From Leptospiraceae bacterium (GTDB lineage Bacteria; Spirochaetota; Leptospiria; Leptospirales; Leptonemataceae): 64,000 nt of DNA. A program made the position numbers and the translations under genes. Shown here piece by piece: positions 1 to 1,722 of the stretch. Under the pieces are notes generated by a model, which was given only the letters and a program-made list of their open reading frames with translations, did no database searches and was not told the DNA's origin. The stretch's first letter is position 1. Each line of letters starts with the position of its first letter. The stretch spans positions 1 through 64,000 of the forward strand of contig JAVJNR010000007.1 in assembly GCA_040217195.1 (NCBI GenBank), written 5' to 3'.

Positions 1-217
1 TACAACGTCAGTGCTACCGTTATGCGTGGATATGTAGAAATACGAGCCCATGATTGTTGCATCCGTGGAGCCGGAGGTCTATATCATGCTACGTAGTTAT
101 TGGATCAAGTTTAAATTATGGAAGATTTATTTGTAACGGAAGGTCAGTTCTGGCAGAACGTTGCATCTCTGCGGCTACTCAAAAAAGAGACAACCGAAGG
201 TTGTCCACCTATCTTTC

Positions 218-369
218 AACATCGAACCTGGCCTTTCAATTGAGCGCCCTGGGGCCCTCCTGAGTTAGCGACAGGAAGTCGCGCCCCCGCCGCTCGATCC
301 ACGGAAGGATCGCGTGGCGGGCAAGGGAGGGTCCCAGGGCGGAAAATGGTAAGCTGTCATGGAGATGTG
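218..369. repeat. Structured repeat, copy 1 of 5 (branched hairpin, attC-like geometry)
   Basis: Ends AACATCGAA...AAGCTGTCATGGAGATGTG; stem 245-260/326-341; hairpins GCGAC-AGGAA-GTCGC (268-282) and 286-321. Confidence 0.9.
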
Positions 370-371
370 CG

Positions 372-400
372 TTGACCATACGGGCCGCTATGGGTATTTT
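372..400 (+). promoter_or_regulatory. Putative sigma70 promoter for a leaderless vapBC transcript
   Basis: TTGACC-N17-TATTTT-N6-ATG(407); no Shine-Dalgarno before the ATG. Confidence 0.55.
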
Positions 401-406
401 TCCCAT

Positions 407-595
407 ATGAAGACTACGGTGGATATTGACGATGATCTGCTGCGGGAGGTGAGCAAAATCTATAAGTTCCGAACTAAACGGGAAACCATTGAAGCAGGCT
501 TGAGAGAACTGATCGCTGCACATAAGCGTAAGGCCCTGGCTGGAATGTTTGGCCAGCAGAAGAACATTCAAGCCGCCCCCCGTAGGCCTGCTTGA
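407..595 (+). CDS. vapB: VapB-family antitoxin
   Basis: MKTTVDIDDDLLRE...TKRETIEAGLRELI pattern; overlaps the downstream PIN gene. Start moved from 359 to ATG 407. Confidence 0.85.
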   Translation: MKTTVDIDDDLLREVSKIYKFRTKRETIEAGLRELIAAHKRKALAGMFGQQKNIQAAPRRPA

Positions 596-939
596 TACTG
601 GCGGACACCAGTATCTTTGTAGAATTCTTTCGGGGCAATCCCGGCGTTCAGAATCTGCAGGACGCCTTAGAGCAGGACGGAATCATCCTACATTCCCTGG
701 TTGAACTGGAGCTGGCACTCGGTGGTATTAAACCAGAAATTGCAGAACTCATGCAGGTGCTTCCCCGTTGCCAATCCATACCTGATTCAACGCTTCTGGA
801 GTTTATTGGGATCCGAAACCTTGCAGGAAAAGGAATCGGCTACGTAGACTGCCAGATTCTTGCAACCTGTCTGGCCCATGGCTATCAACTCTGGACTATG
901 GATAGAAAGCTGGATCGGCTCTGGAAGAGCATGGTATAG
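592..939 (+). CDS. vapC: PIN-domain VapC toxin
   Basis: MILADTSIFV, VELELALG, GIGYVDCQIL and LWTMDRKL PIN motifs; TTG start overlaps the vapB stop. Confidence 0.9.
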   Translation: MILADTSIFVEFFRGNPGVQNLQDALEQDGIILHSLVELELALGGIKPEIAELMQVLPRCQSIPDSTLLEFIGIRNLAGKGIGYVDCQILATCLAHGYQLWTMDRKLDRLWKSMV

Positions 940-986
940 TGAAAGCTTCTCGCTTCAAAAATTCGGAGGCTTCCCACCAACCCCGC

Positions 987-1137
987 CACATCGAAAATGG
1001 CCTTGCGAAAAGTGGCCTGGGGTCCGTCCGAGCAAGCGACAGGAAGTCGCGCTCCCGACGCTCATTCCAGGGACGGATTGCGCGTCGGGCGAAGGCGGAC
1101 CACAGGCCACAAATCGGAAAGCTGTCATGGAGATGTG
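987..1137. repeat. Structured repeat, copy 2
   Basis: CACATCGAA...AAGCTGTCATGGAGATGTG (1119-1137); same branched fold as copy 1. Confidence 0.9.
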
Positions 1138-1150
1138 CTTCTAACCCCGC

Positions 1151-1305
1151 CATATCGAACATGGCCTTACTTGCAGTGGGGCGGCGCCCTTTCCGAGCAC
1201 GGCAACACGAAGTTGCCGTCCGCGCGCTCGGTCCAGGGATGGACCGCGTGCGCGGCGAGGATGGGGTGCCGCCCCGTATCAAAAGTAAGCTGTCATGGAG
1301 ATGTG
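1151..1305. repeat. Structured repeat, copy 3
   Basis: CATATCGAA...AAGCTGTCATGGAGATGTG (1287-1305); 13-nt linker from copy 2. Confidence 0.9.
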
Positions 1306-1318
1306 CTTCCAACCCCGC

Positions 1319-1471
1319 CACATCGAACAGGGAAGCTTTGCAAATCCGGCGGGGGAGGTGCCTGAGCTAGCAACACGAAGTTGCGACTCGGCCACTCGAT
1401 CCAAGGATGGATCGCGTGGCCGACGAAGGCACCGCCCCCGCCGAACATCCCAAGGGTTTTGTGGAGATGTG
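1319..1471. repeat. Structured repeat, copy 4 (divergent outer stem)
   Basis: CACATCGAA...GGAGATGTG; stem 1347-1362/1428-1443; GCAAC-ACGAA-GTTGC hairpin. Confidence 0.85.
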
Positions 1472-1519
1472 GGACTTCTATTGAACCAGAGACAACCGAA
1501 GGTTGTCCACCTACCTTTC

Positions 1520-1722
1520 CACATCGAACCTGGCCTTACTTGTAGTGGCGGGGGCCTGTCCGAGAGCGGGACAGGCTCAACTGAAAGGCGAGAGTATTCC
1601 AAAAGGCAACCTGCAGTTGCCTTCCGATTCACCCGCGCTCCCAACGCTCGACCCAGGGAGGGGTCGCGCGTTGGGCGAGGACTGGCCCCCGCCACACATG
1701 AGTAAGCTGTCATGGAGATGTG
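1520..1722. repeat. Structured repeat, copy 5 (with ~50-nt internal expansion)
   Basis: CACATCGAA...AAGCTGTCATGGAGATGTG (1704-1722); abuts the tRNA 3' end. Confidence 0.9.

Follow-up and report, generated by a model that had tools for sequence, protein, structure and literature searches.

Are the direct repeats at the start of this contig the attC sites of an integron-like cassette array, or do they belong to something else? The stretch of DNA that we analyzed, here called the window, is 64,000 nucleotides long and forms the start of contig C7 (JAVJNR010000007.1) of a Leptospiraceae genome (G000; assembly GCA_040217195.1); G001, G002 and so on denote the comparison genomes. A first-pass annotation had read five folded repeats of 150-200 bases as attC-like sites with a non-canonical ATC/GAT core, served by a recombinase encoded elsewhere, and had offered a MITE-like unit as an alternative. 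We conclude that by the tests applied here the repeats are not attC sites, and that the element, found in uncultured marine spirochaetes just past tRNA ends, probably moves toxin genes from one such site to another in the manner of a cassette system.

Five repeats form an array that ends at a tRNA gene

Read on the plus strand, each unit consists of a short leader, a hairpin with a 3-nt loop (hairpin F), a C/A-rich linker, an outer box and an inner box, followed by a variable internal loop, a long covarying stem and a three-way junction carrying two hairpins, with loops A(G/C)GAN and ANGGAN (Table 1). GAG/CGAG flank the junction and the 3′ end of the unit is GATGTG. All five copies show the attC-like layout described by the first-pass annotation: the outer boxes are inverted, the spacers measure 6 and 5 nt, and two bases of the inner box are unpaired. 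Also confirmed were the linkers of 13, 13 and 48 nt (measured from the 6-nt boxes) and the toxin-antitoxin cargo, a VapB and a PIN gene between E1 and E2. The centre, however, had been called variable and is not: it is a three-way junction of constant length, invariant in its loop and junction bases and common to subtypes with different outer boxes.

Table 1. Features of the repeat array at the start of the window, and the integron used as a control
Feature	Position	Strand	Remarks
Start of RHS-core/lipoprotein cargo block and upstream segment	1..186	-	88% match to G005 L018; continues over the contig gap into the end of C1
Leader hairpin F, then C/A-rich linker	187..205	+	7-bp stem, 3-nt loop; part of the unit
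Element E1	217..369	+	Long basal stem, three-way junction, 3′ end GATGTG
Sigma-70-like promoter of vapBC	372..400	+	2 nt past the end of E1; 1 found vs. 1.1 expected by chance; position and spacing kept in 4 other genomes
VapB antitoxin gene (cargo)	407..595	+	PF09957, E 1.6e-15
PIN/VapC toxin gene (cargo)	592..939	+	PF01850, E 4e-11; NF047959 below cut-off
Element E2	986..1137	+	
Element E3	1150..1305	+	
Element E4	1318..1471	+	
Leader of E5	1472..1518	+	Hairpin F (1489-1507) and linker
Element E5	1519..1722	+	Long form, first hairpin expanded; 3′ TGTG overlaps the tRNA 3′ end
tRNA, CAT anticodon	1720..1794	-	Array anchor
IntI-like integrase and attC array	G000 C6, L133:1-4023; G005 L130		Chromosomal integron, integrase co-oriented with the array

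Over 17 copies, the outer boxes and spacers have a column conservation of 0.89-0.99 and the 3′ junction strand one of 0.92; the two hairpins follow with 0.76-0.77, then the long stem (0.68-0.69) and the internal loops (0.51-0.56). Hairpin F and the linker also precede other subtypes. Since these sister subtypes keep hairpin F, the linker and the junction and have other outer boxes (some nest inside the window subtype), the ends mark the subtype and the centre marks the family, which is the opposite of attC. A decayed element in G002 (C31, L085:6272-6434) has outer boxes CGGATC/GATGCG, a two-sided change of the otherwise invariant terminal pair.

Two points were absent from the first-pass annotation: E5 adjoins the 3′ end of the tRNA-CAT gene, and the array runs past the contig start into C1. 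A G002 locus (L085) aligns with window positions 237-1 and then, about 60 nt further on, with the end of C1, and proteins of both C1 and L018 contain the RHS-associated core. Because the window start and the C1 end are one RHS/lipoprotein block, the array likely has at least seven units. The tRNA is likely Ile2, since two other CAT tRNAs lie on C4.

Hairpin F was considered as a UUCG terminator and rejected: its register gives a 3-nt loop, and terminator-like matches numbered 2 vs. 2.2 expected by chance. Searches against Rfam returned, at E ≤ 1, the tRNA and an overlapping Plastid-ycf2 match below cut-off and nothing else; at E ≤ 10, positions 180-1715 gave only chance-level miRNA, lncRNA and IRES matches.

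The repeats covary and the plus strand folds better

The repeats are real, structured and covarying. E1 folds better than its shuffles on either strand (z = -4.70 on plus, -4.68 on minus). Among six aligned copies, two-sided changes occur in 23 of 49 pairs, a number that none of 500 shuffles reached, and the paired fraction is 95%, compared to 37-45% in slid controls. The plus strand is the folding strand, as the first-pass annotation had proposed, because it carries 18 G.T wobbles vs. 2 A.C. DNA fold energy is lower on this strand in 5/5 window copies; RNA fold energy is lower on it in three, tied in one and higher in one.

Arrays occupy tRNA and flbB 3′ ends in one orientation

A profile built from the five window copies gave nine matches in G000: these five, one near the end of C1 and three on C2. 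The C2 copies adjoin tRNA-Val(GAC) in the same manner as E5 adjoins tRNA-CAT. Arrays occupy tRNA-CAT, tRNA-Val and the 3′ end of flbB, each in one orientation. The last, upstream of aroC, is filled in G002, G005 and G006 and has no elements in G000, G003 and G004. Strong full-length matches are found in five of the seven genomes of the genus; with weaker partial matches counted too, the element reaches 15/42 genomes of the family and 10/111 of the order. The exact core pattern occurs at 24 loci in a species-level genome collection, all of them in spirochaete MAGs, and at none in viral contigs. A metagenome scan for the core gave four loci, and the three that were compared are near-identical to G002 and hence not independent.

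Five distinct right flanks start with TGTG-GG (two tRNAs, the flbB end, the vapB promoter and a lipoprotein stop). Something else must pick the tRNA ends, because TGTGGG is present 1513 times in G000. Four different element types adjoin tRNA-CAT in G000, G004, G005 and G006.

At two of the filled flbB sites (L018:6137-6781 in G005; L023 in G002), the C-terminus of FlbB is truncated by the element, which supplies the stop codon. The left flank of tRNA-CAT is 99.8% identical over 5.5 kb between G005 (L021) and G002 (L094/L022), though aroC is only ~85% identical, which suggests that this region may have been transferred recently between the two species.

The crossover lies in TGT(G) at the foot of the stem

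Empty and filled alleles of the tRNA-Val site allow the insertion point to be read. On the folding strand, the empty alleles of G001 and G003 read ATTT-TGTG-GGAGC. In filled alleles the left junction is ATTT-TGT-cacc (G000) or ATT-TGTG-agcc (G004), and the right junction is GAGA-TGTG-GGAGC in G000, G002 and G004. G005 has on the right a decayed copy ending ATGA-TGTG, and the left junctions of G002 and G005 have drifted (TCTG). The element was inserted at this TGTG(G) target without loss of the target, and the crossover is in TGT(G), at the 3′ foot of the folded-strand stem, the clean case coming from this one locus. What the junctions have in common is TGT(G) and not the proposed ATC/GAT core. 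A leader of 16 nt (G000) or ~45 nt (G004) separates the left TGT(G) from the left box, and the right TGTG is part of the box.

The empty state is likely ancestral, because in the aroC tree G003 branches off outside the filled clade (support 86/91; G001 is absent from this tree and G044 was dropped, having no alignment), and because G001 and G003 have the longest branches in a second tree, itself unresolved. At flbB, some tens of native target bases are missing from the filled alleles, a loss that clean insertion does not explain unless a deletion came later. There is no empty allele for the tRNA-CAT locus of the window, since tRNA-CAT contigs were not found in G001 or G003. Close-strain contigs laid on the tRNA-Val array gave an internal variant and no empty allele.

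Cargo differs between loci and strains

In G000 and G004 the vapBC genes belong to the tRNA-CAT array, in G002, G005 and G006 to that at flbB; in all five genomes their promoter is 2 nt past an element end. An inverted repeat CCATA...TATGG (374-397 in the window) lies between the -35 and -10 boxes of vapB; it is kept in 5/5 genomes with a varying centre and is likely the toxin-antitoxin operator. The RHS block and its downstream element are found at tRNA-CAT in G000, at flbB in G005 and at a fourth locus in G002, there with no element on the other side. E1 is 93% identical to a G005 copy that has the same left cargo at another locus (flbB), and their right flanks differ.

Closely related strains, represented by contigs of low depth, show further rearrangements. 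In run X1 the end of E4 is joined to the vapB promoter (1472 to 371), in run X6 a new leader directly follows position 1722, and in run X3 an internally deleted copy replaces E2-E4. The new joints fall exactly after TGTG. E1 and E4 share only their last 10 nt, a stretch too short to explain the X1 joint by an assembly repeat or by ordinary homologous recombination. A test asking which of the two flanks accompanies an element gave mixed results: pairs alike on the left only scored 0.93, 0.86, 0.76, 0.70, 0.70, 0.68 and 0.68, and those alike on the right only 0.62-0.84, against a background of 0.72. The 23/24 TGTG ends in this test are a biased count, the end filter having demanded TGTG/TGTA or one named variant.

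The cassette array of the first-pass annotation survives, then, as a structure-conserved element that folds as a single strand, forms direct-repeat arrays and has cargo differing between loci and strains; its attC sites do not.

A possible single-strand mobile unit moved in trans

The reading we prefer, to which we give an even chance, is that the repeats are a non-autonomous single-strand mobile unit that is moved in trans and builds polar arrays; it has a TwoAYGGAY-like core and one fixed end, the TGTG at the 3′ end of the folded (+) strand. An enzyme that nicks and transfers strands, probably of the HUH type, would recognize the fold (leader hairpin, linker, long stem and three-way junction) and cut at the 3′ foot of the stem. 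Older units would be displaced outward as new ones insert at a tRNA-adjoining TGTG or at the end of any element already there. DNA 5′ of the element would travel with it, as a stretch bounded by two element ends or through one-ended movement of the IS91 kind. The mosaic and truncated forms would later arise by deletion and by gene conversion between copies. A point against this reading is that the loops match an RNA-binding motif, not a known DNA-binding motif.

A fixed tetranucleotide at one end and subterminal hairpins, as expected of an HUH-type element, are both found here (TGTG and hairpin F). IS91-type elements (PMC13181058) have one end that is fixed, next to a target tetranucleotide, and another that varies; they possess subterminal hairpins and capture and co-mobilize adjacent DNA, all of which resembles the window elements. 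They differ in that no transposase gene was found here, the tetranucleotide is TGTG vs. CTTG/GTTC, and IS91 makes no duplication whereas TGTG stands on both sides at tRNA-Val (PMC13181058). Like the REP/REPIN/BIME-RAYT and TIR/TIRYT systems, the window elements are clustered intergenic palindromic repeats; REP and TIR repeats are considered to be mobilized in trans by an HUH enzyme that reads subterminal hairpins (PMC6006769, PMC3733652). Compared to these repeats, the window elements are much larger and branched, have no GTAG foot, carry gene cargo between copies and number ~10 copies of the window subtype per genome; no RAYT was found. The MITE-like alternative, with the conserved flank as part of the unit, is closer to the data than attC. 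The terminal inverted repeats of a classical DDE MITE would nonetheless lie directly inside the target duplication, and here the leader intervenes on the left.

The search for a moving enzyme covered Y1, RAYT, IS91, IS110, TnpB and reverse transcriptase (RT) in genomes that are 58-94% complete, and gave no match in G000. Y1_Tnp matched in 0/1 and 0/5 genomes, the RAYT model and TnpB in 0/7 each, and the IS91 families in 0/5 and 0/7 (IS91 controls were also silent). Of the recombinase and HUH enzymes that the first-pass annotation had suggested looking for, an IntI-like protein turned up on C6 with unrelated sites of its own, and no HUH enzyme of the Y1, RAYT or IS91 type was found. G000 has four tyrosine recombinase matches: one XerC-like, one that we take to be XerD-like, one IntI-like, and one short and degenerate.

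A broader version of the proposal, which we put forward only tentatively, is that TwoAYGGAY-like folds may be the recombination sites of a second, non-integron cassette system, in which a single-strand recombinase would cut at TGTG by the foot of the stem, target tRNA/tmRNA 3′ ends, and both stack and reshuffle modules of the toxin-antitoxin and polymorphic-toxin kinds. If this is true, the TwoAYGGAY-class "RNAs" across bacteria would be mobile-element ends and not regulatory RNAs. Such repeats are widespread and multi-copy, and the present locus provides a TwoAYGGAY-like fold with a mapped insertion core (TGTG), an empty allele, a tRNA 3′ end preference and moving cargo. Because core, empty allele, target preference and cargo are known here, mobility can be tested directly with a defined substrate. 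Should the enzyme be found, the same genome would hold a cassette-stacking system independent of integrons. Searches of open-access texts gave no description of the window element or of a TGTG insertion core.

Likeness to TwoAYGGAY and the case for an RNA

The TwoAYGGAY motif (RF01731) is described as a basal stem bearing two hairpins, with tandem G.A and loops resembling those bound by CsrA (PMC4333381; PMC2864571); in Pseudomonas it is described as multi-copy, strain-variable and REP-associated (bioRxiv 10.64898/2026.09.22.753630). The window core matches in having two successive hairpins on a shared basal stem, GGA in the loops, tandem G.A by the junction, a long extended stem with extra hairpins, and several copies per genome in strain-variable number. 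The differences from the same descriptions lie in the loops, A(G/C)GAN and ANGGAN vs. AYGGAY, and in the arrangement, direct-repeat arrays at tRNA or gene 3′ ends vs. mostly divergent doublets. AYGGAY is not present in both loops of the window copies, which read AGGAA or ACGAA, and ACGGAA, AGGGAC, AGGGAT, AAGGAT or AGGGAG. No insertion core or cargo shuffling is reported in the available portions of the three sources (PMC2864571; PMC4333381; bioRxiv 10.64898/2026.09.22.753630). RF01731 scored above its gathering cut-off in 0/7 genomes, had no match in G000, and was absent at E ≤ 10 from window positions 180-1715. The window core bears a likeness to TwoAYGGAY and is not a member, because the Rfam model does not score the window copies.

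This likeness raises the alternative that the element is mainly an RNA, with two CsrA-type hairpins on a three-way junction, that insertion is rare, and that homologous recombination, slippage and gene conversion between copies account for most of the arrays and cargo moves. The loops ACAGGANGT or ACACGANGT and CCANGGANGG are close to the CsrA consensus RUACARGGAUGU, with GGA in the loop (PMC8668096), csrA is present in 5/5 genomes, and TwoAYGGAY has itself been proposed as a CsrA binder (PMC4333381). The motif match and the presence of csrA make the element a candidate CsrA-binding RNA of the CsrB/RsmZ sponge type. Hybrid and internally deleted copies are common, as recombination among repeats would have it, and no mobilizing enzyme was found in the families searched. 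Against this, the folded strand is antisense to the adjoining tRNAs, a given locus holds different element types in different genomes, which is not how a conserved RNA gene behaves, and the joints fall within the last 10 nt of elements. The loop of hairpin A, moreover, is CGA and not GGA in two of the four standard window copies. We consider a mainly RNA role unlikely.

Other recombinases at the TGTG core

A different site-specific recombinase might also act at the TGTG core, be it an unrecognized tyrosine recombinase, an enzyme of the IS110/IS1111 type visiting with a mobile element, or an RT route primed at CCA ends. A short shared core without target loss fits conservative recombination, and both occupied tRNA genes end in CCA at positions 71-73, which is complementary to the terminal TGG of the element. 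G043, in which the core lies in toxin arrays, has 16 RT matches. For the RT route, however, RT is missing from G000, G002 and G004, with a single match in G005, and for the IS110 type, matches were present in 0/5 and 0/7 genomes, so that none was found in the genus. The targets also have no symmetric binding arms. The internal loops were considered as target guides similar to a bridge RNA and rejected, since copies at the same target have different loops. Taken together, we regard this group of routes as improbable.

The host integron has attC sites of its own

The integron on C6 provided a control for what attC sites look like in this organism. Its IntI-like protein has domains PF13495 and PF00589 and scores 183-192 bits with TIGR02249 (cut-off 265); it is found in G000, G004 and G005, with close relatives in G001 and G002, and by our reading of its sequence would appear to be without the I2 insertion. 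The sites of this integrase are 232-233 nt long, with AAC/GTT cores and perfectly paired L boxes; there are three in G000 and ten were counted at L130 in G005, where R'' matches the R' opening the same cassette in 8/10. A profile of these host attC sites matched none of the window elements. This organism thus has genuine attC sites on C6, and the window elements are something else, unrelated to them.

The likeness to integron attC/CALIN arrays is nonetheless extensive. Both (for attC, see PMC5027507) form direct-repeat arrays of imperfect hairpins with two boxes, asymmetric spacers and a strand skew, and both carry cargo such as a toxin-antitoxin pair with its own promoter in opposite orientation. 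The arrangement of R box, spacer and L box with extrahelical bases is also found in the window, as two unpaired bases on the 3′ arm that are not kept in sister subtypes. The core boxes differ, attC having RYYYAAC/GTTRRRY and the window CCACATC/GATGTGG. Perfect R''/R' complementarity over 7 nt is seen in one of four window units, whose boxes vary little, vs. 8/10 in the control integron. The window elements differ from attC in their conserved centre and spacers, their obligatory leader hairpin and the nesting and truncation of copies; the terminal structure, variable in attC, is here a three-way junction common to subtypes and genera.

IntI cleaves the AAC of the 5′ (R') box in the folded strand, between its A and its C (PMC5027507), whereas here the crossover is in the other arm, at the foot of the stem, and it is the 3′ box that adjoins the chromosomal flank. 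With a G^AT crossover, the right junction should carry T and the left one A; tRNA-Val shows the donor A on the right and the target T on the left, so that both junction bases contradict that register. The IntI register and a left-box crossover were rejected on these empty and filled alleles. That the elements are non-canonical attC sites recombined by the host integrase is therefore very unlikely, even though this is the only resident hairpin recombinase found, the boxes, spacers, unpaired inner-box bases and purine/G.T skew on one strand are attC-like, and the AAC triplet is said not to matter per se (PMC5027507): the crossover is in TGT(G) of the 3′ box, the centre is conserved and the integrase has its own AAC/GTT array. 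Attributing such repeats to an integron from box geometry alone can mislead.

Related repeats at other tRNA, tmRNA and toxin loci

A simple scan of G000 gave 23 clusters of paired CAGGANG/CANGGANG hairpins belonging to several subtypes, two of the clusters being the elements studied here. Examples are found on C10 (532921-533200) by a tRNA-Ser and on C1 (3000-7200) by a Hint-like domain. The 3′ flank of the tmRNA (C3, 88846-89700) holds GGA-hairpin elements of another subtype, ending in TGTGG, along with ~20-nt repeats of the tmRNA 3′ end.

In family f2, the 3′ flank of tRNA-CAT (L013, L014, L017) has tandem palindromic repeats with loops CAGGATG and CCATGGATGG, in the sense orientation of the tRNA, accompanied by inverted fragments of the tRNA 3′ end. 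Related cores lie directly past tRNA-His 3′ ends, antisense to the tRNA, at L060 (G024) and L136 (G039), the latter with duplicated tRNA-end fragments.

In G043 (L075-L078), the three-way-junction core precedes at least 10 polymorphic-toxin/immunity modules, all in one orientation. There the core can be read as an open in-frame leader that begins like a signal peptide and is fused at L-A-H-A codons; one of the leader-fused ORFs has a Colicin D domain.
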